Counted from the first letter of the stretch, positions 2,769 through 57,038 are shown. The stretch is DNA of 64,000 bases from Minisyncoccota bacterium (GCA_021734995.1 JAIPHX010000004.1:18115-82114), one strand, 5' to 3'. Numbers and translations: made by a program. Notes: a model not told the origin generated them from the letters alone.

Positions 2769-2802
2769 TAGTTTGGTATCTGTTTATAAATAAGAATTCA
2801 AA

Positions 2803-3793: not shown

Positions 3794-3867
3794 TGGCGGG
3801 CGATGAGAGAATCGAACTCCCGATAACGGTTTTGGAGACCGTAGTTATGCCACTTAACTAATCGCCC
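3794..3867 (-). tRNA. tRNA-Trp (anticodon CCA)
   Basis: Reverse complement GGGCGATTAGTTAAGTGGCATAACTACGGTCTCCAAAACCGTTATCGGGAGTTCGATTCTCTCATCGCCCGCCA folds as a clean cloverleaf: acceptor GGGCGAT/ATCGCCC, D stem GTTA/TAAC, anticodon stem ACGGT/ACCGT with loop CTCCAAA (anticodon CCA), T arm GGGAG-TTCGATT-CTCTC, encoded CCA. Confidence 0.85.
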
Positions 3868-35154: not shown

Positions 35155-36246
35155 TTAAATCCCCTCTTCTTGTAATTTTTCTACAAGATCCCGAGTCTTA
35201 CGATTTAGTTTTTTGGGCATATTGATATTAACTTTTATCAGCAAATCACCTCTTCTACTACCACTCACAGGTACCCCTCTTCCTTTTACTCTAAGTATTT
35301 CATTGATGGATACACCGTCAGGTATTTTTACTTTTATTTCTCCATCTAAAGTCTCAATATTTTTATCAGCTCCCAAAAGCGCTTCACTCAATTTTATATC
35401 CAAATTCATTACGAGATTTGGTCCTTCTCTTTTGAAAACAGGATGTGGCTTAACGTGAATTTTAATATACAGATCTCCTGTAGTCCCTTTAGCAATAGCT
35501 TCTCCCATACCACTCATTCTTATCATTTCTCCATCTCTAATACCTGAGGGAACAGCCACTACCACTTCTTCCTCTTTTCTAATGACCCCATTACCCCTAC
35601 ATTCAGAACATTTTTCTGCATACACTTTTCCAGAACCAAGACAATCTTCACAAGCTTTTGTGGTAGAGATAGTTCCTAGAATAGAACGCTTAGTCTCATG
35701 TATTTTGCCCTGTCCATTACATCTCTTACAAGTATCCATTTTGGAATTTGGCTTACCTCCTGCACCATTACACTGCAGACAAAGAGAATTTTTTGTCATC
35801 AAGAATCTTCTAGTAACCCCAAAAATTGACTCACTGAAGCTAATCTGCATTTCCGTAGAAATATCTCTCCCTCTTCTAGCCTGAGGTCTTCCACCTCCAA
35901 AGAAATCACTGAAAATGTCGTTTAAATTTCCAAAATCAAAATCTGCTCCTGCTCCTCCATTTTGAAATCCGTTTGCAAAACCAGAAAAATCAAAACCACC
36001 AAATCCTTGGCCATATCCTTGACCACCACCCATATTTTCAAAACCAGCACCAAATTGGTCGTATTTCTGTCTTTTTGAGTCATCAGAAAGAGTTTGATAA
36101 GCTTCATTTACTTCTTTAAATTTTTTTTCGTCTCCTTCTTTTTTATCAGGATGATATTTATGAGCCAGCTTGTAAAAAGCTTTTTTTATCTCATCTTTAG
36201 ATGCACTTTTATTTACTCCCAATATTTCATAGTAATCTTTAGCCAT
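35155..36246 (-). CDS. dnaJ: chaperone DnaJ
   Basis: J domain (DYYEILGV…HPD), G/F-rich linker, and CxxCxGxG zinc-finger repeats. Confidence 0.9.
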
Positions 36247-36286
36247 AATAAAAGATTATACTCACACACACGAAGAGGTCAAGAGG

Positions 36287-37732
36287 CTATATCATCGGCT
36301 CAACCTCTTGTGTAGCACTTACAGATTTAGAATTCCCTTCTATCATTGACTTTTCTTCAGCGCTACGAATAATAGTAGCTTCTTCTTCAGCGATAAGATT
36401 TGCAGCACTTTCTTTTGAAATAGTATATTTTCTACGAGAAGCTTCTTCTATTTCTTTTCTATATGAAGGATGAGTTGGCGGTAAAATTCGTAAAGTCTCA
36501 GCAGAAAATGGGTCATAAGATTCACCATCTATGGTCATCTTAATATAAAATTCAGTTACTGCTAGATTAATCATATCTTTCACATCAAAGATAGGAGAGA
36601 ACTCAGGTTTCATTTTTACAGCATCTTCACCACCAATACGAAAAGAAATAATACTTCCACAATTACCCAATACTGCTTGATGCACTTTTGGAATAATTTG
36701 ACCGACATATTGATGCGCCATTGTAAGATTCAATCCGTATTTGCGAGCCTCTGAAAGAATGTTTTCAAATGTTTGAGTGACCACATTTTGAAACTCATCC
36801 ACATATATATAAAAATCTTTACGATCTTTTTCAAGCATACTTGCTCTTTCCATACCTGCTTGCTTAATCTTTGTCAAAAAAATAGATCCTAAGAAAGAGG
36901 AATTTTCTTCTCCGAGTCTTCCTTTAGAAAGATTGATCAATATAATCTTTTCTTTATTCATAAGCTCACTAATATCCACCTTATTTTCTTTCTGTCCAAA
37001 GATATTACGCAACAATGGATCTGAAAGGAATTGCCCAAGTTTATTGACCAAAGGAATAATAGCGTCAGTATCAAACTTTTCAGACCAATCGGCAAATTCA
37101 ATAGCGAAGAATCTTTTGACCATATCATCTTTGATATATTCAATTACTTTCTGTCTATAATTTCTATCAGTCAACATTGAGATCATTCCACGCATTGTCG
37201 CATAAGGGTAATCCAATAAAGCTAGACAAGTAAAACGAAAAACGTGTTCTAGGCGAGGAGTCCAATTGGCACCGAATTGTTTTTGAAAAACTTCAATCAA
37301 TCCTTGCGTAAGTTGGAACTTAAACATAGGATCTACATTTTGCAAAGGATTAAACGAGATTGGAAAATTAATATCTGTAGGATCAATAATACATACATCT
37401 TCAATACGTTCTTTTGGAATAAAATCAAGCATTGCATCTATCACATCTCCATGTGGATCTATAAGACAAAGCCCATGGTTATAAGAGATATCTTGCCTTA
37501 AAAATAATTCCATGAGTTTTGTTTTTCCTACTCCAGATTTACCAATAATATACAGATGCCTACGGCGATCTATTCTCTTTATACCAAAAATAAATTTCTT
37601 TTCTTCTAAAGAAGCAACGTAATTTGTGCGTCCAATGAAAGACACCTCCTCAGGTTCTACTTTCCCAAAAATAGGAAGTTCTGGTGGTGGTGGTGCGTAT
37701 TTTATTATCTGTACTCTATTTCCTTTTGGCAT
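36287..37732 (-). CDS. FtsK/HerA-superfamily P-loop ATPase (DUF87/HerA-like; T4SS-coupling-protein-like)
   Basis: Walker A IIGKSGVGKT followed by the HerA-type CLIDPHGD motif; Walker B YIYVDEFQ. Paralogue of the next gene. Confidence 0.55.
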   Translation of the reverse strand: MPKGNRVQIIKYAPPPPELPIFGKVEPEEVSFIGRTNYVASLEEKKFIFGIKRIDRRRHLYIIGKSGVGKTKLMELFLRQDISYNHGLCLIDPHGDVIDAMLDFIPKERIEDVCIIDPTDINFPISFNPLQNVDPMFKFQLTQGLIEVFQKQFGANWTPRLEHVFRFTCLALLDYPYATMRGMISMLTDRNYRQKVIEYIKDDMVKRFFAIEFADWSEKFDTDAIIPLVNKLGQFLSDPLLRNIFGQKENKVDISELMNKEKIILINLSKGRLGEENSSFLGSIFLTKIKQAGMERASMLEKDRKDFYIYVDEFQNVVTQTFENILSEARKYGLNLTMAHQYVGQIIPKVHQAVLGNCGSIISFRIGGEDAVKMKPEFSPIFDVKDMINLAVTEFYIKMTIDGESYDPFSAETLRILPPTHPSYRKEIEEASRRKYTISKESAANLIAEEEATIIRSAEEKSMIEGNSKSVSATQEVEPMI

Positions 37733-37763
37733 ATATTAATATTCTAACATTTAAGTGATACAT

Positions 37764-40061
37764 TTATCCTAAAATTTTTCGCAAGACATCTTCAGGTACT
37801 TCTTTTGTTTTATTTTTCAGATCTTCTTGTTTCTTTTTACTGTCATATTCTTCGTTTTCGTCTTCTTGTTTCTTTTGATCATCATTTACCTGTTTTTCAT
37901 CTTCTTCTGTATTTTGATTATCAATTATCTCATCTTTTTTATTTTCTTGTTTAACTTCAGAATCTTCTAGAGGTCTTTCCCTTTCTGGAACTTTTGATAT
38001 TTCAGGCATTTCTATTTCGCGCACTATTCCAGAAAATACTGGAGTTTGTTCTTTTACATCTTCTTCTTTTTTTATCTCATTGACTTCTTTTGTTACAATT
38101 TTTTCAGTTATTTCTTTTGTTTCATCTATATCACTTATTTCCTCAAACTTTCCAATAAAATCTTTAAGCTTATTCATTTCTTCTAATGAAGCAGATTTAT
38201 CATTTTTAGGTGGTTTATTTTCTGTTTTTGATTTCAATATGTCTAAAGAAGCAGGAGGTTCTACCGGCTCACTTACCACTTCTTTTATTTCTTCTTTAGC
38301 TTTTATTTCTTCTGTTTTATTATTTAAAGTCTTATTTAAAATATCTTTTAAAGCACTTGTATCTCTTTCTTTTTCATTTTTATTTTTATTTTTTGAAAAA
38401 ACATTTTTGATTCCAGAAAATATTTTTGGTCTACCTGAACTTTTGTTATTATTACTTTCCCTCGAATCCTTAGAAGGTTCTTTGCTTTGTTCATTACTCT
38501 CTTCTTGTGCAAACTCTATTCCTAGATCCATTAATGGTTTATAAAACTTAGTAGGCTTGTAGTTTGACACAGACTCACCTTTCACTGGCTTCATTTCTCC
38601 TGCTTTTATTTTAGTAATACAATCTTTACAATACACAGGTCTTCCTTTTTCTGGTTTAAAAGGAACTTTTGTCGCATTTCCACAAGAAGAACACTCTACA
38701 TCAAATTTTTCAAAATTATTATTACCAGGATTTCCGTTTTCATCCAGAATAGACATTCCACTCCAATTATTTATTTCTTTTTCTACCTCTTCCTTTGTTT
38801 TACAATATAATTCACGAGACATTTTTATCACTTCCGTTTCTATTTCCTGATTACCAGATTTTACCAATTGAGGCATTGTTTTTGCAGAAAATGGACGCGA
38901 TGTAACTCCGTCAATCATAAGCTTCATATATACTTTATAATTCGGTAAATTAACAATATCCTCTGGAGTAAATTCTGGTTCAAATTCTTTTTCCAAAAAA
39001 TCAGCATCATCTGCTCCTACTCTAAACACAATCATTGTTCCAATGTTTCCAAAGATAGCATCACGAACAGAAGAGCTTTCTTTGGTAACAAGCTGAGCAG
39101 TGTATTGGTGAGCAACTGTAAGATTTAGGCGGTATTTTCTAGCTTCAGAAAGAATACCTGCAAAAGCATCTGTAACGAAATTTTGAAATTCGTCCACGTA
39201 AAGATAGAAATCTTTACGTTCATCTTCTGGGATACGTACTCTTTCCATCGCAGCAAGCTGAATTTTAGTAATAATCATACCTCCAAGAAGAGCTGAGTTG
39301 TCTTCTCCAATTCTTCCTTTTGAAACGTTTACCAAAAATATTTTTCCTTCATTCATCATATCAAAAATATTGATAGTACTTTTAGACTGACCCACAATAT
39401 TTCTAATAATAGAAGTAGATAAAAATTGCCCTACTTTGTTTTGAATAGGAGCGATAGCTTCGTTTCTAAATTTATCTTGCCATTCTTCGTATTCATGTAT
39501 CCAAAAAGCTTTAATGACAGGATCTTTCAAATTGGTGATTATTTTTTGTCTATAATCTTTGTCTACCAACATTCTAGGGATACCAAGAAGAGTAGTTCCA
39601 GGAGTATCTAGTAAAGCCAAAATAGCATTATTTAAAATATATTCCATTCTGGCACTCCAAGCATTTGCCCATATTTTTGTAAATATTCCCATCAAACCAG
39701 AAGCTACTAAATGCTTATACTTAGGATCTATTAATTCCAGCACATTAAAACCTATATGATATTCTGTATCAGCAGGATTAAAATATATTACATCTTTTAA
39801 TCTATGAGGTGGTATAGCAGAAAGGACACCTTCCACATTCTCTCCATGAGGATCCACAAGACATACACCATCTCCATTCTGGATGTTTTGAATAATCATA
39901 TTGAACATTAGAGCAGATTTACCAGTACCAGATTTTCCAAGAATATATACATGCTGACGTCTGTCTCTACGCTTTATACCAAAGAGTTTATTTTGGTCAC
40001 GAAAACTGGCTAAGCCAAGATATGTAAGGTCTCTATTACGTGGTAAGTCTGATAAATCCAT
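37764..40061 (-). CDS. FtsK/HerA-superfamily P-loop ATPase with C-terminal CxxC…CxxC zinc ribbon and ~330-aa K/E-rich low-complexity tail
   Basis: Walker A ILGKSGTGKS, CLVDPHGE, Walker B LYVDEFQ. Then CSSCGNATKVPFKPEKGRPVYCKDC, then a long lysine/glutamate-rich tail (…KEEIKEVVSEPVEPP…EDENEEYDSKKKQEDLKNK…). Confidence 0.55.
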   Translation of the reverse strand: MDLSDLPRNRDLTYLGLASFRDQNKLFGIKRRDRRQHVYILGKSGTGKSALMFNMIIQNIQNGDGVCLVDPHGENVEGVLSAIPPHRLKDVIYFNPADTEYHIGFNVLELIDPKYKHLVASGLMGIFTKIWANAWSARMEYILNNAILALLDTPGTTLLGIPRMLVDKDYRQKIITNLKDPVIKAFWIHEYEEWQDKFRNEAIAPIQNKVGQFLSTSIIRNIVGQSKSTINIFDMMNEGKIFLVNVSKGRIGEDNSALLGGMIITKIQLAAMERVRIPEDERKDFYLYVDEFQNFVTDAFAGILSEARKYRLNLTVAHQYTAQLVTKESSSVRDAIFGNIGTMIVFRVGADDADFLEKEFEPEFTPEDIVNLPNYKVYMKLMIDGVTSRPFSAKTMPQLVKSGNQEIETEVIKMSRELYCKTKEEVEKEINNWSGMSILDENGNPGNNNFEKFDVECSSCGNATKVPFKPEKGRPVYCKDCITKIKAGEMKPVKGESVSNYKPTKFYKPLMDLGIEFAQEESNEQSKEPSKDSRESNNNKSSGRPKIFSGIKNVFSKNKNKNEKERDTSALKDILNKTLNNKTEEIKAKEEIKEVVSEPVEPPASLDILKSKTENKPPKNDKSASLEEMNKLKDFIGKFEEISDIDETKEITEKIVTKEVNEIKKEEDVKEQTPVFSGIVREIEMPEISKVPERERPLEDSEVKQENKKDEIIDNQNTEEDEKQVNDDQKKQEDENEEYDSKKKQEDLKNKTKEVPEDVLRKILG

Positions 40062-40099
40062 ATATATAAATTATACCTTGCACAGAATGTTTTATCAAT

Positions 40100-40131
40100 A
40101 AAAAAACTGGCTTTGCGAAGCCAGTTTTTTT
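40100..40131. terminator. intrinsic terminator downstream of dnaK (palindromic)
   Basis: AAAAAAACTGGCTTtgcgAAGCCAGTTTTTTT directly after the dnaK stop codon. Confidence 0.5.
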
Positions 40132-40135
40132 ATCT

Positions 40136-42055
40136 TTAATTTTTAGTACCCTCTGTATCTCCCTTGTTTTCCGCTTCATTGAATTCTGCATCTCGCACTT
40201 CTGCGGGTTGCTCTTCAGGAGTAGCATTACTTTCAGGATTTGGCTCATTCGTACCAGCTTTAGCCATAGCTTCCCCTATCTTTGACATTTCAGAAGAAAG
40301 CTCTTCGGTGGCTTTTTTGATAGCTTCCATGTCATTCCCATCTTTTACTGATTTCAAATTTGAAATCTTTGTTTCTACTTCTTTTTTCAAATCTTCAGGG
40401 ATACTTGCTTCATTATCTTTCAAAGCCTTTTCAGCTGTGTAGATTATCATCTCTCCTGTATTTTTTACATCTACTATTTCTTTTTTCTTTTTATCTTCTT
40501 CAGCGTGGACTTCAGCATCTTGTTGCATTTTTTTAATATCTTCTTCTTTCAATCCAGAGCTAGCTTCTATTTTTATAGACTGTACTTTCCCAGATGCTTT
40601 TTCTTTTGCTGTAACATTTAAAATACCATTTGCATCTACATCAAAAGTAACTTCCACTTGAGGAATTCCTCTTGGAGCAGGTGGTACCCCATCTAAGATA
40701 AATTTACCGAGAGATTTATTGTCATTTGCCATTGGTCTTTCTCCTTGTACTATATGTATCTCCACTGAAGTTTGGTTGTCCGCAGCAGTAGAGAAAACCT
40801 GTGATTTAGAAGCTGGAATGGTAGTGTTTCTCTCAATCAATTTTGTGGCTACTCCACCAAGTGTTTCTATCCCCAAGGAAAGAGGTATCACATCAAGAAG
40901 TAGTACATCTCTAACTTCTCCTTTTAAAACTCCAGCTTGAACCGCAGCTCCTAGTGCCACTACTTCGTCTGGGTTAATAGACATGTTTGGAGTTTTTCCA
41001 AAAAAGTTTTTTACTGCTTCTGTTATGGCAGGCATTCTTGTCTGACCTCCCACCATGATTATTTCATTAATATCACCCATTTTAAATGGAGAAGCTTCTA
41101 ATGCTCTCTTTGTAATTTCAATAGATCTGTCTATATATTCACGAGCCAAAGATTCCAAAGTAGCTCTAGTCATTTTCAAAAGTAAATGTTTAGGGCCATC
41201 AGCTCCAGAAGTGATGAATGGTATATTTATTTCAGTTTCAGTAGTAGTAGAAAGTTCATGTTTCGCTTTTTCTGCCCCTTCTTTTAATCTTTGATGTGCA
41301 AGAGGGTCTTTAGATACATCAATACCTGACTCTTTTTTAAATTCCTCAGCAATCCAAGTAATAATCTTTCTATCAATATCACCACCTCCCATATGACTAT
41401 CTCCGTCTGTAGATTTTACTTCTATTACATCATCCCCAATTTCTAAAATAGATACATCAAATGTTCCTCCTCCAAAGTCATACACTACGATTTTTTCATT
41501 TTTCTTTTTATCAAAACCATAAGCTAATGCTGCAGCGGTAGGCTCGTTGATTATTCTCTTTACATCAAGCCCCGCAATCGCTCCAGCATCTTTTGTGGCC
41601 TTTCTTTGAGAATCATTAAAATATGCAGGGACAGTAATCACCGCTTCAGTTACTTTTTCTCCTGTTTTTGCCTCCACATCTGCTTTTATTTTTTGCAAAA
41701 GCATTGCAGAAATTTCTTCTGGACGATAAAACTTATCAGTCATTTTTACTTTTACTCCACCATCTTCACCGTTTTCAATTTTAAATGAAGCTGTTTGTTT
41801 ATCTTTTTGTACTTCTGGATCATCAAAACGATGCCCCATATATCGCTTTACTTCAGCTATTGTATTTTCAGGATTAGTCACAGCTTGTCTTTTAGCCAAA
41901 AGCCCAACCAAACGATCCCCGTTTTTTGCCATAGCAATCACAGAAGGAGTAGTTCTATTTCCTTCTACGTTTTCCACAATTTTAGGAGCACCTCCTTCAA
42001 TAATGGCTACGGCAGAATTTGTTGTCCCCAAATCAATTCCTATTATTTTACTCAT
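40136..42055 (-). CDS. dnaK: chaperone DnaK (Hsp70)
   Basis: [18 protein letters not shown]…, DLGGGTFD, and full Hsp70 ATPase and substrate-binding domains. Confidence 0.95.
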
Positions 42056-42090
42056 AATTTTATTTTAAATTAAACTTATAATATATATAA

Positions 42091-42170
42091 AAATAAAGGT
42101 TTTATTATATTTATACCTTTATTTTGCGACCGCAAAATACTTGTCAAAAGTAGTATATATGATATACTAC
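42091..42170. promoter_or_regulatory. cluster of perfect palindromes in the dnaK / PaaX-like divergent region (candidate operators)
   Basis: AAATAAAGGT…ACCTTTATTT (10-bp arms, 42091-42124); TTTTGCG-ac-CGCAAAA (42123-42138); GTAGTATAT-atg-ATATACTAC (42150-42170), the last ending 5 nt before the 42175 ORF start. Confidence 0.35.
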
Positions 42171-42174
42171 CCCT

Positions 42175-42693
42175 ATGTCAAGTAAATCAGACTATTCCAA
42201 AAAAATATTAGGTATTTTAGGCCAAAAAACAGCCATCTCTTTAGAGAATATCAAAAAAGGAGAAGACTCTAAAGCGAAATATGCTCTGACTAGATCTGTA
42301 AAAAATATGATTGAAGGAGGATTGGCTGAAATACACAAATCTACCAACCAAACTTTTTTAAAAATCACCCCAAAAGGTAAAGCAAAATTAAATTGTCTAA
42401 AATTAGAAGGTAAGGATGCTTTGGTTTCCAATTCTTGGGATGGTATGTGGAGGATTATTATTTTAGACATGCCAGAAACTAGAAAAAATGAGCGTGATAG
42501 TTTAAGATATATATTAAAGAAGGCAAATTTTGTTTGTATTAAAAATACTGTATGGGTATCCCCTTTCCCTTATGAACATTTGTTCTATAATTTAAAGAAG
42601 GACTTAGGATTATCCACAGAACTTATCATTATCGTCACAAACAAAGTAGACGATGATACTGCCAAAAATTTTTTGGAATCAATAAAATCATGA
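42175..42693 (+). CDS. winged-helix regulator, PaaX-family-like C-terminal domain
   Basis: N-terminal wHTH-like segment; C-terminal W.GMWRIIILDMPETRKNERDSLRYILKKANF…NTVWVSP matches the PaaX_C-type pattern (W.G.W…D.PE..R..RD.LR…GF…SVW.SP). Confidence 0.4.
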   Translation: MSSKSDYSKKILGILGQKTAISLENIKKGEDSKAKYALTRSVKNMIEGGLAEIHKSTNQTFLKITPKGKAKLNCLKLEGKDALVSNSWDGMWRIIILDMPETRKNERDSLRYILKKANFVCIKNTVWVSPFPYEHLFYNLKKDLGLSTELIIIVTNKVDDDTAKNFLESIKS

Positions 42694-43379
42694 AGATACA
42701 TAGATTTATCGGGGATTACAATTTGAATAAAGATTTCATTACTATTACTGATCTATCTCAAGTAAAGCAAATTAAAAATGTTTTAAAGTTAAATATTAAT
42801 GAACACATTTTTTTATCGGATGGGATGGGAAAAGAAATTGAAGCAGAAATTCAAAATATTCAAAAAGAACAAATTATGGTAAAAAAAGTAGTGGAAATTA
42901 TTACAGAAAAAGAAAATAAAAAAGTGAACTTGTATCTTGCTATCTTAAAGAAAGAAAACTTTGAATTAGCCGTCCAAAAAGCAGTAGAATGTGGCGTGTC
43001 AGAAATCACACCAATTTTAACAAAAAGAACAATAAAGACAGGTATCAAGAAAGATAGGCTTGAAAAAATAATCAAAGAGGCATGTGAACAATCTGGAAGA
43101 AATATTATTCCAAAAATAAATGAAATTACAACTTTTGAAAATGCATTACAAGAAGGACAAAAAAACGATCGTAAGGTGATTTTTCATTTTTCCAAAGAAG
43201 AATACTCAAATATCCCTGATATCAAAAGCATCGCTATATTTATAGGGCCAGAAGGTGGTTTTACTGATACTGAAATATCATTTGCAAGAGAACAAAAATA
43301 TGAAATTTGCTCTTTAGGTGACCATACACTACGAGCTGAGACTGCTTGTATTGTAGGGAGTTATCTTGCTTGCCACTAA
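42690..43379 (+). CDS. rsmE: 16S rRNA (uracil1498-N3)-methyltransferase RsmE
   Basis: PUA-like N-terminus and SPOUT C-terminus with IFIGPEGGFT; 229 aa; HRF at the N-terminus. Confidence 0.7.
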   Translation: MKIHRFIGDYNLNKDFITITDLSQVKQIKNVLKLNINEHIFLSDGMGKEIEAEIQNIQKEQIMVKKVVEIITEKENKKVNLYLAILKKENFELAVQKAVECGVSEITPILTKRTIKTGIKKDRLEKIIKEACEQSGRNIIPKINEITTFENALQEGQKNDRKVIFHFSKEEYSNIPDIKSIAIFIGPEGGFTDTEISFAREQKYEICSLGDHTLRAETACIVGSYLACH

Positions 43380-45115: not shown

Positions 45116-45149
45116 ATATTAAAAGTATATATAATAAAGGGTAATTAGT

Positions 45150-46892: not shown

Positions 46893-46913
46893 GTTATATT
46901 AAAACAATCCCAG

Positions 46914-47831: not shown

Positions 47832-47833
47832 TT

Positions 47834-48556: not shown

Positions 48557-48577
48557 TTTAAAATATATACTTTTTAA

Positions 48578-50305
48578 TTAATACACCTCTTTATTATAAC
48601 ACCCCTCACAATATACTATCTCTGGTCTATCTGGAGCATATGAGGTTTCGAATTCTTCTGTGCACTTCCCTGCATGCCCATGTTTGTCTTTGTCACACAT
48701 ACAAGAACGGTGCCAGAGTTTCATTGGGTTTAATCTCTCTAATCTTTTTTTATACCTTTCATCTTGATGCAATCTAGGTAAAGGTAAATCCATTCTCTTA
48801 TAAAATTCAAATTCTGATTGTAAAATGCGATAAGATTTCCCTGAAACAGAACATTGAATAATATGTTCAGTAATATCTTCTTTTGTATCCTTTATATCAA
48901 TTGGTAATTCCTCAGCTTTAATTGTCGGCATGTATCTTTTTACCTCTACTTCTCCATAATCTATACCAAACTTTGTTAAAAATTCTTTATCTTTTGGCAT
49001 TAAATCAAATAATACTGATTCAGTATAACTAAAAGGAGAAAATTCTGGAGGGAAAAATTCTCCATATTTATAAATATGTCCAACTTTACCAACATAAGGC
49101 ATATCATTCATATGCTTTTTAATTTTCTCTATCATTTCAAAATATTTTTCCTTAGAATACTGTTTATTTAAAATACAATATTGCTTATTTTTTAAACCTA
49201 CACAACCAAAAAGATCAGCCGAGGAACCACAATAATCAGTATATTCTGAGTTTATTAATGCTGGCATACCATAAATAGTAAAAAACAAATTATTACCGAG
49301 ATCTGAACCCCCTGTAGCATGTTCATAAATTAATTCACCTCTACCTTTATGTGTTACATCCATAGCATCTTTTAATCCTCCTGGACATCTAAAACCATAT
49401 TTTACATTTTCAACACCGGCACAAGAAAAACAATATTTTGCATTTTTAGAAGAGAAAATATTATCTCCCGTAGAGTTAATAGAATTTAAAATATGACCAT
49501 ATTGTCTTGGCAATTTTAAATTAAATTTATAAAATTCTTTTTGGAAATTAACCAAAGTTTCATAATTACCTAAATTTAAATCTTTCAACTTTTTTTCATA
49601 TTCCTCTTTAGAATACTGTTCATTTAAAATACAAAATCTTTTGTTTCGTAAATTAACACAACCTATACAATCTTGACAATTTCTACAATTAATTAAAAAC
49701 CGAGAAGAAACACAGTTACTAGAAAAATCACAAAAAGCACAATCATAATTTTTAGTAGAATCGATACACTCATAAATAATATTACTATCTTGAGCTAAAT
49801 ATGTATCGTAAATATCTTTTGATTTTGATATATTATTTGAATAAAAAATATTTTCAGAATCCCAAATAACAGAATATGAAAGATAAACATTTTTTACATC
49901 TTGAATCATATTGGCATACTCAGAATTTATATTCTTGCCGTTTTGCCCTACTGCTGGACGAGGAACATTTTTAAATAATTCATTAAATTGAGTAAAAAAA
50001 TCTTTATTAAAATCAACGTCTAAAGCATAGGTTTGTGGATCCCATTCATCTTTTTTCCAACAGTCTACACAATATACATTAAAAATAGATTCTGGACTAT
50101 AAACAGAAATAGTCTTTTTGCTACACAATGCACAATTTCTATGATACAACCTTCTTTCGTTTCTCCAAATCAATCTTCTAAAGAACCTACACTCCGGACA
50201 AAAAGTAGGTGGTGGTACTTTGATCTTTTGATAGAAAAGAAAGTCTTCTGACTCTATTATAAAGTCATTTTTGCAGTTTTGGCAGTTTTTAGTTTCTGGT
50301 GACAT
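48578..50305 (-). CDS. Cys-rich paralogue family protein 3
   Basis: Same terminal zinc-ribbon motifs; internal CxxCxxCxxC (CRNCQDCIGC); duplicated …C.LN.QYSKEEY… modules. Confidence 0.6.
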   Translation of the reverse strand: MSPETKNCQNCKNDFIIESEDFLFYQKIKVPPPTFCPECRFFRRLIWRNERRLYHRNCALCSKKTISVYSPESIFNVYCVDCWKKDEWDPQTYALDVDFNKDFFTQFNELFKNVPRPAVGQNGKNINSEYANMIQDVKNVYLSYSVIWDSENIFYSNNISKSKDIYDTYLAQDSNIIYECIDSTKNYDCAFCDFSSNCVSSRFLINCRNCQDCIGCVNLRNKRFCILNEQYSKEEYEKKLKDLNLGNYETLVNFQKEFYKFNLKLPRQYGHILNSINSTGDNIFSSKNAKYCFSCAGVENVKYGFRCPGGLKDAMDVTHKGRGELIYEHATGGSDLGNNLFFTIYGMPALINSEYTDYCGSSADLFGCVGLKNKQYCILNKQYSKEKYFEMIEKIKKHMNDMPYVGKVGHIYKYGEFFPPEFSPFSYTESVLFDLMPKDKEFLTKFGIDYGEVEVKRYMPTIKAEELPIDIKDTKEDITEHIIQCSVSGKSYRILQSEFEFYKRMDLPLPRLHQDERYKKRLERLNPMKLWHRSCMCDKDKHGHAGKCTEEFETSYAPDRPEIVYCEGCYNKEVY

Positions 50306-50337
50306 AAATAAAGTATATATAATAAAGGATAATTAAT

Positions 50338-51252
50338 CTAATATTTATCTTCAGGGTACAGATACCTCCTGATCTTAATAGAATAGTCTCCCATATCTCC
50401 TATTTTTTCTGAGATATCTGAAATAAAATATTTTTCTCGAGCTTCTTTGATAGGAAGATCTGTGTCCAATAAACCAACTCTCAGAGCAAGGTCATCAGCT
50501 GAAGCTGTAAGCCATAAACGCCAAGAAAACATTGATATTCTATTTGAAGTTATCTTATTTATATGTCTTACTATACTTGAAGTACAGTTTGCATAAAAAG
50601 TGTTGTACCATGATCTGTCAGTAGAGTTTAGCTCATTCATTCTTTCCAACATATCAACAAGTAACAACCGAGCATTTTTGTTTTCAGTTAATTTCACAGG
50701 ATACACATATACCTTATCTTTTCTAACATTTGCTCTTAAAAGCATTACATCTCTTTCGTCTGCTGGAATATACATCAATGGATACGTATGCAACATCCCC
50801 TTCCAAATACTAAAATTTTGTTCTTTAGTTTTCCGTGCTTCTATGCTAATAGCTAAAAAATCTCCGTTAGTAAACTCAAAAGAAAGAAAAGTATGTGCCG
50901 CAAAAGTAGCTTCATTAAAAGGCTCTGATACATACCACACTTTTTTGATCTCTCTTAAATCATAAGTTTTATCATAATAAGCAGGAATCATATCTTTTTC
51001 TGTAGGAAAATATCTAAAATTTCTGACATTTTTAATAGTCACAAAATCATCATTAAATTCTGCTTTAGCTAAGATAGCTAAATGCTCTTGCCAATCACCT
51101 TCTGTTGGAACTTCTTTGGAAATTTGCCAAAACACAAAAAGACAAAAAATACATATTAAAATATACAAAATTCTAAAAAATAAAGTATTCTTAATAAAAT
51201 TAAATTTTAAATTCATTATCTTACAAATTAATAGACTTCTTTGGTATAACAC
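50338..51252 (-). CDS. membrane-anchored DUF4105/Lnb-like protein
   Basis: N-terminal TM helix; the …WYNTFYANCTSSIV… segment resembles the conserved NCT motif of DUF4105 (Lnb N-acyltransferase-like) proteins. Assignment is tentative. Confidence 0.35.
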   Translation of the reverse strand: MLYQRSLLICKIMNLKFNFIKNTLFFRILYILICIFCLFVFWQISKEVPTEGDWQEHLAILAKAEFNDDFVTIKNVRNFRYFPTEKDMIPAYYDKTYDLREIKKVWYVSEPFNEATFAAHTFLSFEFTNGDFLAISIEARKTKEQNFSIWKGMLHTYPLMYIPADERDVMLLRANVRKDKVYVYPVKLTENKNARLLLVDMLERMNELNSTDRSWYNTFYANCTSSIVRHINKITSNRISMFSWRLWLTASADDLALRVGLLDTDLPIKEAREKYFISDISEKIGDMGDYSIKIRRYLYPEDKY

Positions 51253-52925
51253 CCTTCACAGTACACTATTTCCTTGCTTTCTGGAGCATAAGCTGAATCC
51301 ATTGTCTCTCCGCATTTTGAACAATTAGCTTTATAAAGTCTTTGGGATAAAGTATTTTGGAAACGAACCAGCCTACGACATTCAGGGCATTTTCTAGGAA
51401 TTGCAATATTTAATCTTTTTAATAACTCAAACTCACCTTTTACTATTCTAAAACATTTTCCACATTCACATTTTATAACCTCATTTAAAATATCATTAGA
51501 ATTATTAATATCATTCGGTAGATCAGAATATTTAACAGTAGGAGTATATTCATTTGGAATGGGTTCAAACCATTTTAAGTGATTTTCTTCACATTTTTCT
51601 TTCGTCATAGGAAAATATTGATTTGCCATTGTTTCATTATAAGCAAAAATAGAAAATTCTTCTGGGAAAAATTCTCCGTATTTATATACTAAACCCTTTT
51701 TACTAATATAAGGATTACTGTTCATATTTTTAATAATTTCTTCTTTCAGTTTTAAAAACTCATCTTTTGTATATTGCTTATTTAAAATACAATATTCTTT
51801 TTTCTTTAAATTAACACACCCGAAAGTATTTTTACAAGAAGTAGTGTAATAACAATATTCATTGTTTAATGAATCGGGATAATTCCCAAAAGAAAATTTT
51901 ATATTAGATGCTCCATGCCCTGCTACTGCCACTTCATACATTCTTTCAACATTACCTCCCCAACAAGTATAATCATAAGAATCTTTTGTACGAGGGACTG
52001 AGATCAATTGAACATAACGAGAATCTTCTACGCTAGTTATCATATAAGCATCCTGAGTATTTTTTGATTCATACGCATAATTACCGACTACATTTACATT
52101 CAAACTATTGGTATATAGACACCTATTGGGTAATGTAAGCCAAAAAGCTTTCGCTTCTTCAAGATATTTTAAAATGTTTGAGTATAAATTCAAATTTACT
52201 TTTTTCATAAATTCAAAATATTCTTCTTTGGAGTATTGTTGGTTAAAAATACAATATGATTTTTTCTTTAAATTCATACATCCAAAACAATTAATACAAG
52301 AGGAGCAATTTTTGGAAAATAAAACCTCTACACAGTTATCACATTCTTGAGAAAAAAGAGTTTGGTAACATTTATGCAGGCCCGCAGATTCATAACATAA
52401 TTCTGATTCTTTAATACGAAAACAATCCGCTGAATCTTTTAAACCATCTACAAAATCAGAATAAAAACAATTTTCGGCATAATCCACAAAAAAGCAAAGA
52501 TAACAATTTTTTAAATCAGAAGTATAGTTAGTATATTCACTATTAATTAGCTTGGAATAAGTAGAATCCAAAGACATGAAAGGAGTTTTGTTTATTAATT
52601 CTTCAACTTGCTCTAAAAAAGGACGAGAAGAATCATAATCCATACTATACTCAGTACCATCCCATTTATCAGCCCACCAGCACTTTGAACAAAAAACTTT
52701 TTGTTTCTTGTCTTTGTGAACCATTGAAATAATATTCAAGCCACAGCTATCACAAATTCTTTTATACAAAGAATATATATTCATGAAAGACAGTCTGCGT
52801 TTCAACCTACACTCCGGACAAAAAGTAGGTGGTGGTACCTTAATCTTCTCATAGAAAAGAAAATCTTCCGGCTCTATTATGAAGTCTTTTTTACAGTTTT
52901 GGCAGTTTTTAGTTTCTGGTGGCAT
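51228..52925 (-). CDS. Cys-rich paralogue family protein 4 (divergent C-terminal region)
   Basis: Canonical N-terminus; C-terminus …CSKCGETMDSAYAPESKEIVYCEGCYTKEVY; internal CxxCxxCxxC (CSSCINCFGC). Overlaps the DUF4105-like gene by 25 nt. Confidence 0.6.
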   Translation of the reverse strand: MPPETKNCQNCKKDFIIEPEDFLFYEKIKVPPPTFCPECRLKRRLSFMNIYSLYKRICDSCGLNIISMVHKDKKQKVFCSKCWWADKWDGTEYSMDYDSSRPFLEQVEELINKTPFMSLDSTYSKLINSEYTNYTSDLKNCYLCFFVDYAENCFYSDFVDGLKDSADCFRIKESELCYESAGLHKCYQTLFSQECDNCVEVLFSKNCSSCINCFGCMNLKKKSYCIFNQQYSKEEYFEFMKKVNLNLYSNILKYLEEAKAFWLTLPNRCLYTNSLNVNVVGNYAYESKNTQDAYMITSVEDSRYVQLISVPRTKDSYDYTCWGGNVERMYEVAVAGHGASNIKFSFGNYPDSLNNEYCYYTTSCKNTFGCVNLKKKEYCILNKQYTKDEFLKLKEEIIKNMNSNPYISKKGLVYKYGEFFPEEFSIFAYNETMANQYFPMTKEKCEENHLKWFEPIPNEYTPTVKYSDLPNDINNSNDILNEVIKCECGKCFRIVKGEFELLKRLNIAIPRKCPECRRLVRFQNTLSQRLYKANCSKCGETMDSAYAPESKEIVYCEGCYTKEVY

Positions 52926-52945
52926 AAATATATATAATTTTTTAA

Positions 52946-54688
52946 TTAATACACCTCTTTATTATAACACCCCTCACAATATACTATCTCTGGTCTATCT
53001 GGAGCATATGAGGTTTCGAATTCTTCTGTGCACTTCCCTACATGCCCATGTTTGTCTTTATCACACATACAAGAGCGGTGCCAGAGTTTCATTGGGTTAC
53101 GTTTAGCAAGTCTTTCTTCATGACGGCAAAAAAAACATAACCTAGGTAACGGTACTTTTAATCTTTTGTATAAATTAAATTCTCCTGAAGTAATTTTAAA
53201 AGAACCACGACAATATAAATTATTTTTATCAAAATTTAAACATTGGATTACTTCTTTTAGAATAGAATCATCAACATCAGATAATTTATCTTTTAAATCT
53301 TGAGACTTCATTGTGGGGATATAATCAAGTTTATTTAATTCTTTCCATTTATAACCCAATTCTTGTGCCTTTTCTTTTGTTGATGGAAAATAATCCTGTG
53401 CCTGAGTTTGATTATATGCAAATGGGCTTAATTCCGATGGAAAGAATTCTCCATACTTATATACTCTGCCTTTACTATCTATATATGGCATATCATTCAT
53501 ATGCTTTATTATTTTTGGGACTAATTCTTCGTATTCTTCTTTAGTGTATTGTTTGTTTAAAATACAATATTTTTTGTTACGGAGACCAATGCAAGCGAAT
53601 AGATTATTTGAATTATAACAATTGAAAGAATACTGCACTTCAGAAGAGTAATATACCACACTGCAAAAATACAAAGAAACCCCTCCTGCATCAAAAAACT
53701 CATAATTATTTTCAGACAAAAATACTCCTGGTCCACCATCATAACAATCTTTTGAATTAAAACCTCCCCAATGAACATATTTTGAATTTTCTAAAATATC
53801 CGTACAATCAAAACAATATTGAGAATTTTTTACATCTATTAGATTGTCACCTGAAGAATTTAAAGTATTTACTTTAAAATTAGCCCGATGCAAAGATTGC
53901 AAATACAAGCTTAAAAATTTTTCTTTTAATGCTTGGACATTTTTATAACTATCCAAATCAATCTCCGAAATTCTTTTTTTATATTCTTCAGCGCTCAACT
54001 GTTCATTCCACATACAATACGACTTACTTCTTAGGTTTGTACAACCCAGACAATCTGTACAATTAACACAATCATATAAGAAATAAGAATCAACACAGTT
54101 TTTTGATTGTATTGAGTACAAAAGATGATATGAATCAGAAATTGCTACAGAATCAAAACACAATTCAGAATTATTTATGATATAACAATCAATACAATCT
54201 TTAATCTTCCTAACTCTATTTAAATAAAAACTATTTTCTATTCCCCAAGAACCAGAACACATATAGCTATCTTTGGACTCATGTGCAATATTACAATAAT
54301 CTGAATTAACAGCGCTAGAGTTAGATAATGCCTGAAATGGTACATTGTTTCTAAATTCATTCCATTGTTCAAAAAAAGATTTTGAAAAATCATAATCTAC
54401 CCCAAAACTCATAGAGTCCCATTCATCCCCCCACCAATATTGATTATCGTAAATTTTAATTTCAGATTCTGGTGGATATAAACTAATTAATTTTTCATTA
54501 TGCCCAGGAATATTACAATCTTTTTTAAAAAGATTCATTTCATTTCGCCAGCATAAACGTCTGACCATTCTACACTCCGGACAAAAAGTAGGTGGTGGCA
54601 CCTTAATCTTCTCATAGAAAAGAAAATCTTCCGGCTCTATTATGAAGTCGTTTTTGCAATTTTGACAGTTTTTAGTTTCTTGTAGCAT
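52946..54688 (-). CDS. Cys-rich paralogue family protein 5
   Basis: Same termini as paralogues 2 and 3; internal CVNCTDCLGC. Confidence 0.6.
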   Translation of the reverse strand: MLQETKNCQNCKNDFIIEPEDFLFYEKIKVPPPTFCPECRMVRRLCWRNEMNLFKKDCNIPGHNEKLISLYPPESEIKIYDNQYWWGDEWDSMSFGVDYDFSKSFFEQWNEFRNNVPFQALSNSSAVNSDYCNIAHESKDSYMCSGSWGIENSFYLNRVRKIKDCIDCYIINNSELCFDSVAISDSYHLLYSIQSKNCVDSYFLYDCVNCTDCLGCTNLRSKSYCMWNEQLSAEEYKKRISEIDLDSYKNVQALKEKFLSLYLQSLHRANFKVNTLNSSGDNLIDVKNSQYCFDCTDILENSKYVHWGGFNSKDCYDGGPGVFLSENNYEFFDAGGVSLYFCSVVYYSSEVQYSFNCYNSNNLFACIGLRNKKYCILNKQYTKEEYEELVPKIIKHMNDMPYIDSKGRVYKYGEFFPSELSPFAYNQTQAQDYFPSTKEKAQELGYKWKELNKLDYIPTMKSQDLKDKLSDVDDSILKEVIQCLNFDKNNLYCRGSFKITSGEFNLYKRLKVPLPRLCFFCRHEERLAKRNPMKLWHRSCMCDKDKHGHVGKCTEEFETSYAPDRPEIVYCEGCYNKEVY

Positions 54689-54702
54689 TTTATAAATATT
54701 TT

Positions 54703-56370
54703 TTAACTTATATTTTGTTTATAACAATCTTCACAAGCAATTTTTTGATAATTCCATTTTACATCATAAAAAGCAGTAATTTCTTTTTTACAAAATGTAC
54801 AGTAGTATAAATATGGATTCAAAACAGAAAAAAGCTTAAACTGATTTTTAATTCTAAGATCAAAATGATATCTCGGTAATGGAATATTATTTTCTTTATA
54901 AAATGCAAGCTCATTTCTAGCAACATTAAATCTCCAACCAGTTTCTTTGCATATGAGTGCTTTTGTAATAATATCATCCTCCACATCTTTTATATGGTCT
55001 GGTAAATCATCAGTAGATAGTCCTTCAATATGAGCCTCATTTATAGTAAGCCAGTACCCTCCCAAAGATTTTATTTCTTTTTCTTCTGTCTCTTGAAAAT
55101 AAAAATAAGCAGTTGATAAATTAAACGGACATAAGCTCATGTTATATGGCAGAAATTTGCCATATTCTCCTCTTGCCTTCATATCATTAATAATCTTATT
55201 TTTTAAATGATAAAATTCTTCTTCAGAATATTGCTTGTTTAAAATACAATATTTTTGTTTTTTGAGACCGACACATCCAAAACAAGAATCACATTCAACA
55301 CACAAATCAAGATATTCAGAATTTCTGGAAGAAGACCATATTGAATATTTTAAAGAGTAAGCTTGCACACAACAACTACAATTTCCCAGAAGCTCTGAAT
55401 GCCAGCATCCATCTGCATCAATATTTGACTTATTTTTAAGACCTCGAGTACAATTAAAACATTCTTCAGAATCAGATACTGTATTGCAATTATGACAATC
55501 CTTGGTAGACATAAGATAATTTCCAAAAGAATTTTGCACTTTTAAATTAAAGTTTTCTCTATGTACCACTTCTTTTTGAATTATTTCGTGAAATCTTTTT
55601 TTTAATTCTTGAACATTATCATAAGAACCTAAATCATATTCTTTTAGTTTATTTTCATACTCTTCTTTTGAATATTGCACATTTTCTATACAAAATCGTT
55701 TATTTCTTAAATTCCAAGACATAAAACAATCTTGACAATTTCTACAATCATATAAAAAATATGAATCTATACAATCTTTTGAATGATATGAATAAAAAAC
55801 CTTAAAACAATTGGAACAATCAGAAATTTCATAACATTTTTCAGAAGTATAAGAGACAATAGAATCAATACTATTTTTAACCTTAATATTTCTATAAGAA
55901 TAATATAAATTCTCACATTCTTCCATTGCCCTAGATAAATAACAATTTTTTGAACTCCATACATCATCACACCATTCACAATTAGTATTACTAGAACCCA
56001 TTTGGTGAGGTCTCGGAATTTTTTCTTGAAGTTCTTTTAGTTGTTCAAAAAAAGAACGAGATGGATTATAATCGCATCCATAATCTTTCGCATCCCATTT
56101 ATCTCCATACCATTCAGAGATAGAATAAATCGGGTATCTTGCATTTTCAGGCAAAATAGTGATTAATCCATCTCCAGATAAATCAGAAGTTCCTTTTCTA
56201 AATTTTCCAAAAACCCAAAAAGACAAATGTTGCTTTAATCTACACTGATGACACGTAGTTGGAATTTCAGTTTGAGTTTTAGCATACAAGTTTAATTCCC
56301 CTATTTCTATAGTAAAATTTTTTTGACAATACTGACAAATCTTATTCTCCTTTTGTGCCTTTATATTCAT
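54703..56370 (-). CDS. Cys-rich paralogue family protein 6 (most divergent member)
   Basis: N-terminal CQYCQKNFTIEIGELNLYAK…TCHQCR; internal CRNCQDC; C-terminal …YYCTFCKK…IACEDCY. The start overlaps the grpE 3' end by 29 nt. Confidence 0.55.
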   Translation of the reverse strand: MNIKAQKENKICQYCQKNFTIEIGELNLYAKTQTEIPTTCHQCRLKQHLSFWVFGKFRKGTSDLSGDGLITILPENARYPIYSISEWYGDKWDAKDYGCDYNPSRSFFEQLKELQEKIPRPHQMGSSNTNCEWCDDVWSSKNCYLSRAMEECENLYYSYRNIKVKNSIDSIVSYTSEKCYEISDCSNCFKVFYSYHSKDCIDSYFLYDCRNCQDCFMSWNLRNKRFCIENVQYSKEEYENKLKEYDLGSYDNVQELKKRFHEIIQKEVVHRENFNLKVQNSFGNYLMSTKDCHNCNTVSDSEECFNCTRGLKNKSNIDADGCWHSELLGNCSCCVQAYSLKYSIWSSSRNSEYLDLCVECDSCFGCVGLKKQKYCILNKQYSEEEFYHLKNKIINDMKARGEYGKFLPYNMSLCPFNLSTAYFYFQETEEKEIKSLGGYWLTINEAHIEGLSTDDLPDHIKDVEDDIITKALICKETGWRFNVARNELAFYKENNIPLPRYHFDLRIKNQFKLFSVLNPYLYYCTFCKKEITAFYDVKWNYQKIACEDCYKQNIS

Positions 56371-56983
56371 ATATATTTACTCTCGCTGGTCGCAAAACTC
56401 TTTCACCAAGCTTGTATCCTTTTTGAATTACTTGAGCTATTTTATGATCATATTCTTTTTTATCAGTTTCTACTACTTCTACAGAATGATGGAGATTTGG
56501 ATCAAATGATTCATTCTCTTTACCTATCTCTCGGACTCCATACTCTTCAAAAACAGCATTCATTTGAGAATATATATATTCTACTCCTTTACGCCAATTT
56601 TCATCTACTTTCTCCCATGATTCTTTGTTGGCAAAAGCCATATTAAAACTATCAGCTACTGTCAAAAATCTTCCCAAGATTCTTTCTCGGACAGCTTCAG
56701 AAAAATTACTCTTTCTTAGCTCTTCGTCTTTTTTATAATTAGCAAAATCAGCTCTTTCTTTTTGCCAACCTGCTAGATATTCAGATTTTTCTTTTTGAGC
56801 ATCTTTCAATTGCGCACGGAGTTTTTTGAGTGTTTTTTTTAAATCTTCTTCTCCATCTTCGTTGTATTCAAACTCTACAATATCTTCATCGGAATCCTCG
56901 CTGGAGTCTTGTATTTCAGGCATTTTTTCCAATTCCTCTTCTATGTTTGCATTATTTTTTTGTGTTTCATCTTTTTTAGTCAT
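56342..56983 (-). CDS. grpE: nucleotide exchange factor GrpE
   Basis: Acidic N-terminal tail, coiled-coil, and C-terminal …GYKLGERVLRPARVNIYE typical of GrpE. Confidence 0.8.
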   Translation of the reverse strand: MTKKDETQKNNANIEEELEKMPEIQDSSEDSDEDIVEFEYNEDGEEDLKKTLKKLRAQLKDAQKEKSEYLAGWQKERADFANYKKDEELRKSNFSEAVRERILGRFLTVADSFNMAFANKESWEKVDENWRKGVEYIYSQMNAVFEEYGVREIGKENESFDPNLHHSVEVVETDKKEYDHKIAQVIQKGYKLGERVLRPARVNIYEYKGTKGE

Positions 56984-57007
56984 ATTTTTATATTAGCATA
57001 CTTTTAA

Positions 57008-57038
57008 AAAACAAAAAGCCCCTTGTGAGGGCTTTTTT
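57008..57038 (-). terminator. intrinsic terminator downstream of rpsI
   Basis: AGCCCcttgtgaGGGCT hairpin with a U-run on the minus strand, between the rpsI stop and the grpE start. Confidence 0.45.

Follow-up and report, generated by a model that had tools for sequence, protein, structure and literature searches.

How did six genes of an uncharacterised cysteine-rich protein family and two P-loop ATPase genes come to lie among the genes of the DnaK chaperone system? The question is raised by positions 35155–56983 of a 64,000-nucleotide stretch of DNA, hereafter the window, from a metagenome-assembled genome (MAG) of Candidatus Pacebacteria, a lineage of the Candidate Phyla Radiation (CPR, or Patescibacteria); locus tags are of the K9L98_027xx series and the G+C content is 30% throughout. 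A first-pass annotation of this sequence had described the cysteine-rich array and the ATPases as wedged into the canonical grpE-dnaK-dnaJ order and had considered a stress- or proteostasis-related role for the cysteine-rich proteins. The analysis presented below indicates that the locus is probably an old, clade-wide reorganised chaperone neighbourhood that carries a fast-changing tandem array.

Gene identities were assigned from a listing of open reading frames (ORFs) and from Pfam and NCBIfam scans of the window proteins. All gene positions and the gene order of the first-pass annotation held. On the minus strand, rpoA, rplQ, rplM and rpsI are followed by a terminator and by grpE (56342–56983; PF01025, E 1.9e-37), which encodes the nucleotide-exchange factor of DnaK. 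Downstream of grpE lie paralogues 6, 5 and 4 of the cysteine-rich family, a gene for an Lnb_N-domain protein, paralogue 3, genes for a hydrolase and a protein of the zinc-type alcohol dehydrogenase (ADH) family, and paralogues 2 and 1. A PaaX-like gene and rsmE occupy the plus strand between this array and dnaK and are convergent with the array. The minus strand continues with dnaK (40136–42055; Hsp70, PF00012, E 4.8e-245), a terminator, genes for the two ATPases, A and B, and dnaJ (35155–36246; DnaJ, DnaJ_C and DnaJ_CXXCXGXG domains). The distance from grpE to dnaK is 14.3 kb and that from dnaK to dnaJ is 3.9 kb, with opposite-strand genes and a terminator intervening.

Related loci were collected by a DnaK scan with one genome per species. 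This yielded 80 loci from Nomurabacteria and Paceibacteria MAGs, with DnaK 78–89% identical to that of the window, onto which the window proteins were mapped by tblastn. The mapping revealed a common backbone: rpoA, the genes for L17, L13 and S9, grpE, a site for paralogues, the divergent PaaX-like gene, dnaK, ATPase A, a second site for paralogues, often with rsmE, then ATPase B and dnaJ. Among the 54 loci in which both grpE and dnaK are visible, the number of paralogues between them was zero in 18, one in 13, two in 15, three in six and four in two; two more loci, in which grpE is not visible, contain at least 4–5 copies upstream of dnaK. Of the 37 loci informative on the interval from dnaK to dnaJ, all have ATPase A there and 36 have ATPase B. 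The same 37 loci have 0–3 paralogues between dnaK and dnaJ, with none in 11. In nearly all loci, including those without paralogues, dnaK and the PaaX-like gene are divergently oriented, and independent in-group genomes reached via the PaaX-like protein have the identical layout. Since it recurs in dozens of related species, the layout is a genuine trait of the lineage rather than the product of a single insertion event. An assembly artefact was ruled out by its presence in about 80 independently assembled genomes.

Two relatives bear on the history of the arrangement. The closest one, L003 (DnaK 89% identical), lacks paralogues at both sites, and its grpE adjoins the PaaX-like gene and dnaK. 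A more distant Nomurabacteria-type genome (L166/L167, positions 707–3846) has the PaaX-like gene, the operator described below and dnaK, followed after 165 nucleotides by dnaJ, with no ATPases between. DnaK, the PaaX-like protein and DnaJ of this genome are, respectively, 79%, 51% and 49% identical to their window counterparts, and its single paralogue is located 6 kb away, inside polyamine-synthesis genes. In the one outgroup arrangement seen, dnaK and dnaJ adjoin; the chaperone series is interrupted in the in-group. Calling the genes wedged in is historically fair to the extent that the chaperone genes are interrupted, that 18 of 54 loci have no paralogue between grpE and dnaK and that the outgroup has dnaK and dnaJ side by side. 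What did not stand is the idea of one insertion, because the ATPases are fixed and because a PaaX-like gene stands between grpE and dnaK in practically all relatives. An earlier description of the dnaK-ATPase-dnaJ order, or of chaperone gene order in CPR bacteria, was not found in the searchable literature, the coverage of which is incomplete.

The variable part of the locus is the array. Its six paralogues, all on the minus strand, encode proteins of 555–580 residues with a mutual identity of 30–52% (tblastn E 1e-59 to 1e-180). They are located at 54703–56370 (paralogue 6, a divergent, grpE-linked member), 52946–54688 (paralogue 5), 51228–52925 (paralogue 4), 48578–50305 (paralogue 3), 45150–46892 (paralogue 2, with ATG at 46886 as the likely start) and 43376–45115 (paralogue 1, the final gene of the co-directional run). 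Divergence is distributed very unevenly along these genes. At third codon positions, the identity is 0.71–1.00 over the first 41 codons of paralogues 1–5 and 0.77–0.86 over the last 66 codons of paralogues 1, 2, 3 and 5; in the central solenoid region it is about 0.45 for all paralogues, which corresponds to saturation. Four copies share an 89-nucleotide 3′-terminal block with 94% identity (43376–43464, 45150–45238, 48578–48666 and 52946–53034). Since old genes carry freshly homogenised ends, we infer gene-conversion tracts at the ends of paralogues 1–5. The homogenisation spans positions 43376–54696 and excludes paralogue 6, consistent with a separate orthologous lineage tied to grpE. The first gene 3′ of grpE is of the paralogue-6 type in 22 of 36 loci, with 47–67% identity. 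Across related and metagenome loci the copy number per array ranges from 0 to at least 7.

Other features of the array are peculiar to the window. The Lnb_N-domain membrane protein (50338–51252, minus strand; PF13387, E 8.6e-31; one hydrophobic segment), whose true start is probably the ATG at 51216, the alpha/beta-hydrolase-fold protein (47834–48556, minus strand; PF00561, E 3.8e-7) and the zinc-ADH/quinone-oxidoreductase-family protein (46914–47831, minus strand; ADH_N and ADH_zinc_N_2 domains; TIGR02824 at E 3e-38, under its cut-off) lack homologues throughout the 160 related loci that were mapped. The gene for the 16S rRNA methyltransferase RsmE (42690–43379, plus strand; PF04452, E 2.6e-44) is found in relatives behind the second paralogue array, between the ATPases (L031, L041, L045, L056 and L083). 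In the window, all paralogues and rsmE are placed upstream of the PaaX-like gene and dnaK, and the gap between the two ATPase genes is 31 nucleotides (37732–37764). This placement, together with the short gap, suggests a local block rearrangement. The array has a G+C content of 0.28–0.30 and its flanks 0.31–0.36. Neither a transposase or integrase gene nor flanking repeats were found at the array, and its borders have no integrase gene, tRNA gene or att-like repeat; no recombinase gene lies closer than 40 kb. Paralogue 1 and the convergent rsmE overlap by four nucleotides at their stop codons (43376–43379), with no terminator between the converging transcripts.

The connection between the array and grpE was proposed in the first-pass annotation on the basis of a 29-nucleotide overlap, and this overlap is real. 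The grpE stop codon ends at 56342, and paralogue 6 has a single ATG ahead of its conserved CxxC, at 56370, within the 3′ end of grpE. Overlap recurs among relatives: in 21 of 33 species the start of the first gene after grpE lies 14–38 nucleotides inside grpE, and in six more a gap of 29–32 nucleotides is present. No terminator or obvious promoter was found between grpE and paralogue 6. Along the entire run from grpE to paralogue 1, gaps range from −29 to +34 nucleotides and no strong minus-strand terminator is present. Since nothing separates the two genes and the overlapping start recurs, co-transcription or translational coupling of grpE and paralogue 6, as suggested earlier, is plausible. 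Coupling of a paralogue-6-type gene to grpE appears to be the sole specific link between the family and the chaperones that is backed by comparison.

Upstream of grpE, the ribosomal-protein/rpoA operon is closed by the rpsI terminator (57013–57037, minus strand), which has a 10-bp stem with four GC pairs and a T-run behind it; the rpsI-grpE spacer of 26 of 50 related loci likewise contains a perfect hairpin with a T-run after it. Next comes an extended −10 box, TGcTAATAT (56990–56998, minus strand), presumably functional, which ends six nucleotides 5′ of the grpE ATG. The pattern TGnTAnnnT is present in 46 of the 50 related loci, with a median of six nucleotides between the end of the box and the grpE ATG. 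Because the box is so close to the start codon, a leaderless grpE mRNA transcribed from its own promoter is predicted. No Shine-Dalgarno sequence was found for grpE or the array genes. More generally, the genes in 35155–57000 have no Shine-Dalgarno sequences, and −10-like boxes end 6–8 nucleotides 5′ of the ATG of grpE, ATPase A, ATPase B, dnaJ and several paralogues, which suggests that leaderless or near-leaderless starts are widespread in the locus. ATPase A, ATPase B and dnaJ each have a promoter-like site near the ATG; these include one at 40098–40070 upstream of ATPase A and TTGACC-16-TATAAT at 36282–36255 upstream of dnaJ. Since grpE, dnaK and dnaJ each have a promoter-like site of their own, and dnaK is enclosed between a divergent promoter region and a strong terminator, the three chaperone genes would not form one operon here. 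The terminator placed 3′ of dnaK by the first-pass annotation was recovered as a bidirectional intrinsic hairpin with a 16-bp stem and T/A runs on both sides (40098–40133).

Structured elements were also observed in the corresponding spacers of some relatives. Six loci (L023, L027, L037, L053, L060 and L078) share GC-rich structured inserts of about 80–100 nucleotides in the rpsI-grpE spacer, and five (L011, L029, L043, L052 and L062) have CCCCGATTATCGGATCGGG hairpins in the dnaK leader; neither is present in the window. Small RNAs and miniature repeats are possible identities of these elements. The only match to the window in Rfam and tRNA scans was one tRNA-Trp, far from the locus, so the locus contains no known RNA thermometer or riboswitch.

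The region between dnaK and the PaaX-like gene (42056–42174) contains a 13-2-13 palindrome with a core at 42119–42140, TATTTTGCG-GT-CGCAAAATA. A consensus, ACAAGTATTTCGYG-NN-CRCGAAATACTTGT, was derived for the clade from 71 instances (loci L003–L082 and L166). The arms of the palindrome contain the −35-like boxes of both divergent promoters. A search of 1.4 Mb with a degenerate core pattern gave 74 matches, 62 of them within 400 nucleotides upstream of dnaK. The remaining matches are mostly further upstream, beside the PaaX-like gene, and two are directly upstream of dnaJ (L072 and L077). None of the 74 matches is at grpE, at the array or at ATPase A. That the operator never occurs at grpE or the array argues against shared heat-shock control; no cis-evidence was found for the co-regulation of the array with the heat-shock genes that had been proposed from gene order.

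The divergent gene next to the palindrome (42175–42693, plus strand) encodes a protein of 172 residues with a winged helix-turn-helix, a PaaX-like fold and a PaaX_M domain. Its matches listed are close relatives with 58–69% identity. The N-terminal winged helix-turn-helix and the central Cas2-like PaaX_M domain are shared with PaaX of E. coli, a phenylacetyl-CoA-responsive repressor. Unlike E. coli PaaX, the window protein is short, has no match to the C-terminal domain (25 bits against TIGR02277, cut-off 264) and is linked to dnaK; no paa catabolic genes are present in the window. The palindrome and the PaaX-like protein look like a previously undescribed chaperone operator/repressor pair of this CPR clade, and no earlier description of a link between PaaX-like genes and dnaK was found in the searchable literature, again with incomplete coverage.

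The best-known arrangement to which the locus can be compared is the hrcA-grpE-dnaK-dnaJ operon of Bacillus and other Firmicutes, controlled by CIRCE (controlling inverted repeat of chaperone expression). The three chaperone genes have equal relative order and orientation in both, and in both a palindromic operator is found at a promoter beside a dedicated repressor or repressor-like gene. In contrast to that operon, the genes of the window are distributed over three units that are not contiguous, and the candidate regulator is a truncated PaaX-like winged-helix protein encoded divergently from dnaK. The operator of the window clade differs from CIRCE in sequence and is found only at dnaK and, rarely, dnaJ. 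CIRCE itself (TTAGCACTC-N9-GAGTGCTAA) is absent from the 64-kb window at up to three mismatches. No hrcA or groEL gene is present anywhere in the window, no HrcA domain was detected in any ORF scanned, and grpE is preceded by rpsI and its terminator.

ATPase A (37764–40061, minus strand) and its paralogue ATPase B (36287–37732, minus strand) are 44% identical. Their Walker A and B motifs are GKSGTGKS and FYLYVDE in ATPase A and GKSGVGKT and FYIYVDE in ATPase B. Both proteins exceed the Pfam cut-offs for TrwB_AAD_bind, TraG-D_C and DUF87, the last being the DUF87/HerA central domain PF01935, at 29.3 and 28.5 bits (cut-off 23.2). The earlier label HerA/FtsK-like is correct at the superfamily level, but the Pfam scores make VirD4/TraD-like the closer description. 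With type IV coupling proteins (VirD4, TraD and TrwB) the pair shares the FtsK-HerA P-loop core. Unlike these, the window ATPases have no N-terminal membrane anchor: no transmembrane segment was detected, the 19-residue Kyte-Doolittle maxima being 1.13 and 1.01 (threshold 1.6). They are also far below the cut-offs of NCBIfam equivalog models such as TraD and CD1115 (best scores 43.7–50.7 bits, cut-offs 250–647 bits), and neither virB4, a relaxase gene nor other type IV secretion genes were found anywhere in the 64-kb window. Finally, they form a conserved paralogous pair between dnaK and dnaJ, in which ATPase A has two additional features, a CxxC-x17-CxxC zinc ribbon at residues 452–484 (TIGR04272 at 56.2 bits, cut-off 36; PF23477 at 52.6 bits, cut-off 27) and a long, low-complexity, charged C-terminal region. 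ATPase B is named by NCBI as a type IV secretion system DNA-binding domain-containing protein, and its matches listed are close relatives from many species, with 82–91% identity. As for HerA helicases, the DUF87/HerA domain is present, but no NurA or other nuclease gene and no defence effector gene adjoins the ATPases, whose neighbours are dnaK, dnaJ and each other; PADLOC HerA models gave weak matches only.

A survey of Patescibacteria reported 5,713 VirD4-type homologues in 2,918 genomes, about two per genome, of which 148 were near virB4; co-option for another role was left open, and dnaK was not mentioned (PMC12102498). The ATPase pair described here fits these "orphan" coupling-protein homologues.

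The paralogues belong to a large family. A word-based search gave at least 5,185 homologues. Among the 120 homologues listed, source names are absent or "hypothetical", and wherever an organism is given it is a MAG of Paceibacteria, Nomurabacteria or Dojkabacteria. When 1.84 billion cluster representatives (clustered at 50% identity) were searched exhaustively with a family profile, 5,330 clusters matched at E ≤ 0.001, of which 2,330 matched at E ≤ 1e-30; sources with CPR names account for almost all of the family. The best 150 of the 5,330 clusters are mostly full length, about 520–610 residues, with few shorter fragments. A prior description of the family was not found in the searchable literature, within its incomplete coverage. 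The six window proteins contain 5.0–6.5% cysteine and have no hydrophobic segment or signal peptide. About 100 near-invariant residues and the full-length architecture are kept across the family, as would result from purifying selection for a function in the cell.

An AlphaFold2 model of paralogue 5, calculated with 106 homologues, had a predicted local distance difference test score (pLDDT) of 89 and a predicted template modelling score (pTM) of 0.88. In the model, the N-terminus forms a treble-clef-like zinc module (zf_Tbcl-like, with a weak PF13451 match). The centre, about 250 residues, consists of two beta-solenoid blocks, in which regular coils with a period of about 12 residues are stacked. 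A very conserved helical/loop segment, YKYGEFFP...SPFxYNET, is also present, and the C-terminus contains repeated zinc modules with a CxxC-x17-CxxC pattern at the end. The Cys spacing of TIGR04272/PF23477 is matched by eye at paralogue C-termini, where the ribbon would be the terminal module of large multidomain proteins; PF23477 scores were 23.9 bits for paralogue 4 and 13.3 bits for paralogue 5, neither of which reaches the 27-bit cut-off. The domain has been shown to bind zinc in small proteins of Methanosarcina mazei (PMC12704099). At the fold level, with 7–10% identity, the central coils resemble beta-solenoid proteins such as CsgA-like curli subunits, insect and plant antifreeze proteins and left-handed beta-helix acyltransferases, from which the paralogues differ by the lack of a signal peptide and of acyltransferase motifs and by zinc modules on the flanks. 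Foldseek comparison of the model with the PDB revealed no whole-protein match and nothing at E ≤ 0.001, and the family profile gave an insignificant match only among PDB sequences.

Several readings of these proteins were rejected. Iron-sulfur clusters at the CxxCxxC runs of the solenoid are not indicated, as no more than one or two of those cysteines are near-invariant among the 106 homologues. A defence system was dropped: PADLOC returned weak mad8/HerA-type matches for the ATPases and nothing for the paralogues. A phage origin was likewise dropped, the family being represented in viral contigs by one fragment in 2.9 million. The first-pass annotation had also compared the paralogues to the CxxCxGxG zinc centre of DnaJ. 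This analogy carries no weight, because the paralogue modules, zf_Tbcl-like and CxxC-x17-CxxC, fall in different Pfam families. As a tentative proposal, on which we place little confidence, the paralogues could be cytoplasmic zinc-binding scaffold or adaptor proteins, in which a variable solenoid surface provides differing binding specificities and the CxxC-x17-CxxC ribbon contacts a partner shared with ATPase A.

The family is also found away from dnaK. Members lie between ftsW and murG, after scpAB, next to mreB and ftsA/ftsZ, after rpoBC and a sigma-70 gene, and inside polyamine genes. Every paralogue mapped in dnaK loci is on the dnaK strand. In the other contexts the paralogues are co-oriented with their neighbours, except for one opposite gene in L001 and one in L164. 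Among 80 metagenome loci picked by similarity to paralogue 5, arrays of up to seven tandem copies were observed, with all extra copies co-oriented. A chaperone or ATPase gene is present within 10 kb in 20 of the 46 paralogue-picked loci of at least 8 kb, in a sample biased to close relatives and orthologues of paralogue 5.

We propose that the locus is the lineage-typical Hsp70 neighbourhood of Nomurabacteria-type Paceibacteria and that it would be organised in three transcription units. Transcription of the first would start at the extended −10 box directly 3′ of the rpsI terminator, and the leaderless grpE message would run unterminated into the array; the paralogue-6 type would be a conserved partner of grpE, probably translated by coupling, because its start falls inside the 3′ end of grpE. 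The second unit would contain dnaK alone, between the strong terminator and the divergent promoter region with the palindrome, and the PaaX-like protein is predicted to be an autoregulatory repressor, the clade counterpart of HrcA/CIRCE. The two soluble VirD4/TraD-like ATPases followed by dnaJ would make up the third. The PaaX-like regulator and the ATPase pair are the fixed parts of the neighbourhood and the zinc-ribbon genes its variable part, with tandem arrays that would expand and contract at two hot spots, one behind grpE and the other behind ATPase A, and with their ends kept alike by gene conversion. In the window genome, the second array and rsmE may have moved beside the first, and three unrelated genes may have landed in the array.

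Several observations weigh against this proposal or limit its reach. Operon boundaries are deduced from sequence, and the array genes may be transcribed individually, since several of them have −10-like boxes just 5′ of their ATG; in this 30% G+C genome, promoter-like matches barely exceed the number expected from shuffled sequence (116 against 98 ± 10). The right arm of the window copy of the operator is partly degenerate. Relatives were sampled down to 78% DnaK identity, and the bias of the metagenome sample has been mentioned. The ancestral state is represented by one outgroup arrangement, with which insertion of the ATPases in the in-group and their loss in that relative are both compatible.

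Three other explanations of the clustering were weighed. In one, which extends the idea of the first-pass annotation, the locus is a dedicated proteostasis or translocation module, its genes being clustered by joint function and the paralogues being clients, adaptors or co-factors of DnaK-DnaJ-GrpE and the two ring ATPases. The recurrent overlap of the paralogue-6 type with grpE, the presence of arrays at two sites flanking dnaK, the frequent proximity of chaperone or ATPase genes in the paralogue-picked loci, the ribbon shared by ATPase A with the paralogue ends and the near-constant position of the highly conserved ATPase B before dnaJ all speak for such a module. However, paralogues are absent from the grpE site in a third of the loci, are often lacking between dnaK and dnaJ and are missing from both sites in the closest relative; family members also occupy unrelated housekeeping operons, the dnaK operator is absent from grpE and the array, no chaperone-related domain was detected in the paralogues by Pfam, NCBIfam or profile scans, and the proximity count comes from the biased sample. 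We consider this explanation unlikely. Because the array is often lacking, has other operon contexts and is without the operator at grpE, and because its zinc modules are unrelated to that of DnaJ, the general proteostasis or stress role envisaged in the first-pass annotation is unsupported and remains speculation. A further reading, to be regarded as a long shot, would combine the ATPase pair, DnaK-DnaJ-GrpE and the paralogues into one CPR-specific machine for protein handling or export. The paralogues would then be diversified substrates or adaptors recognised via their conversion-homogenised terminal zinc modules, much as type IV effectors carry a conserved VirD4-binding end.

The opposite possibility is that the family has no tie to chaperones: its copies would multiply by unequal recombination and persist on strong co-directional housekeeping transcripts, the grpE/dnaK region being a permissive, highly expressed site. 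Such hitchhiking would account for the wide range of copy numbers, the uniform orientation of the paralogues in dnaK loci and, with the exceptions given above, elsewhere, insertion points that split conserved pairs such as ftsW/murG, the homogenised ends, and three unrelated cargo genes found in the window array only. Against it stand the lack of transposase, integrase and flanking repeats, the near absence of the family from viral contigs, the purifying selection seen in its near-invariant residues and full-length architecture, and an orthologous paralogue-6/grpE junction kept across many species; it is, in our judgement, improbable. The last alternative, that the window genome alone has recently acquired an island horizontally, inserted between grpE and dnaK, could draw on the three enzyme-type genes found in none of the 160 related loci, on the closest relative, in which grpE lies beside the PaaX-like gene and dnaK, and on the slightly lower G+C content of the array. 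It is largely refuted by synteny and can hardly be true: paralogue arrays with an orthologous first gene occupy the equivalent site in 36 of 54 related species, the ATPases are fixed clade-wide, and the borders have none of the integrase, tRNA or att-like features looked for. We thus favour the reorganised neighbourhood with a variable array, at the probability given at the outset.

Outside the locus, several features of the window were noted. The gene for the replicative helicase DnaB (27682–30402, plus strand) contains an intein that includes a homing-endonuclease domain of the LAGLIDADG type. Some mobile or defence-type content in this small genome is suggested by genes for a serine recombinase (1446–2768), a PcfJ-like protein (12569–14641), a MazF-type toxin (22346–22729) and an AbiEii-type toxin (25710–26339). 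No Pfam family matched an ORF of 469 amino acids (61239–62648, minus strand) that is located between the genes for ribosomal proteins and an FtsA-like gene.

CPR/Patescibacteria genomes are among the smallest bacterial genomes, yet the window genome devotes about 10 kb, beside its main chaperone genes, to a single uncharacterised family present in six copies. Four leads follow from the analysis: a candidate heat-shock repressor and operator that would replace HrcA/CIRCE; a constant location, the dnaK-dnaJ interval, for the "orphan" homologues of type IV coupling proteins in Patescibacteria; a conserved, putatively grpE-coupled member of an unannotated family of 5,330 clusters; and a clear case of tandem-array turnover, with probable gene conversion, in a streamlined genome. 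None of them alone alters the textbook view, and all can be tested with existing metatranscriptomes or recombinant proteins. If the improbable export-machine reading were true, these episymbionts would gain a variable repertoire of delivered or displayed proteins.

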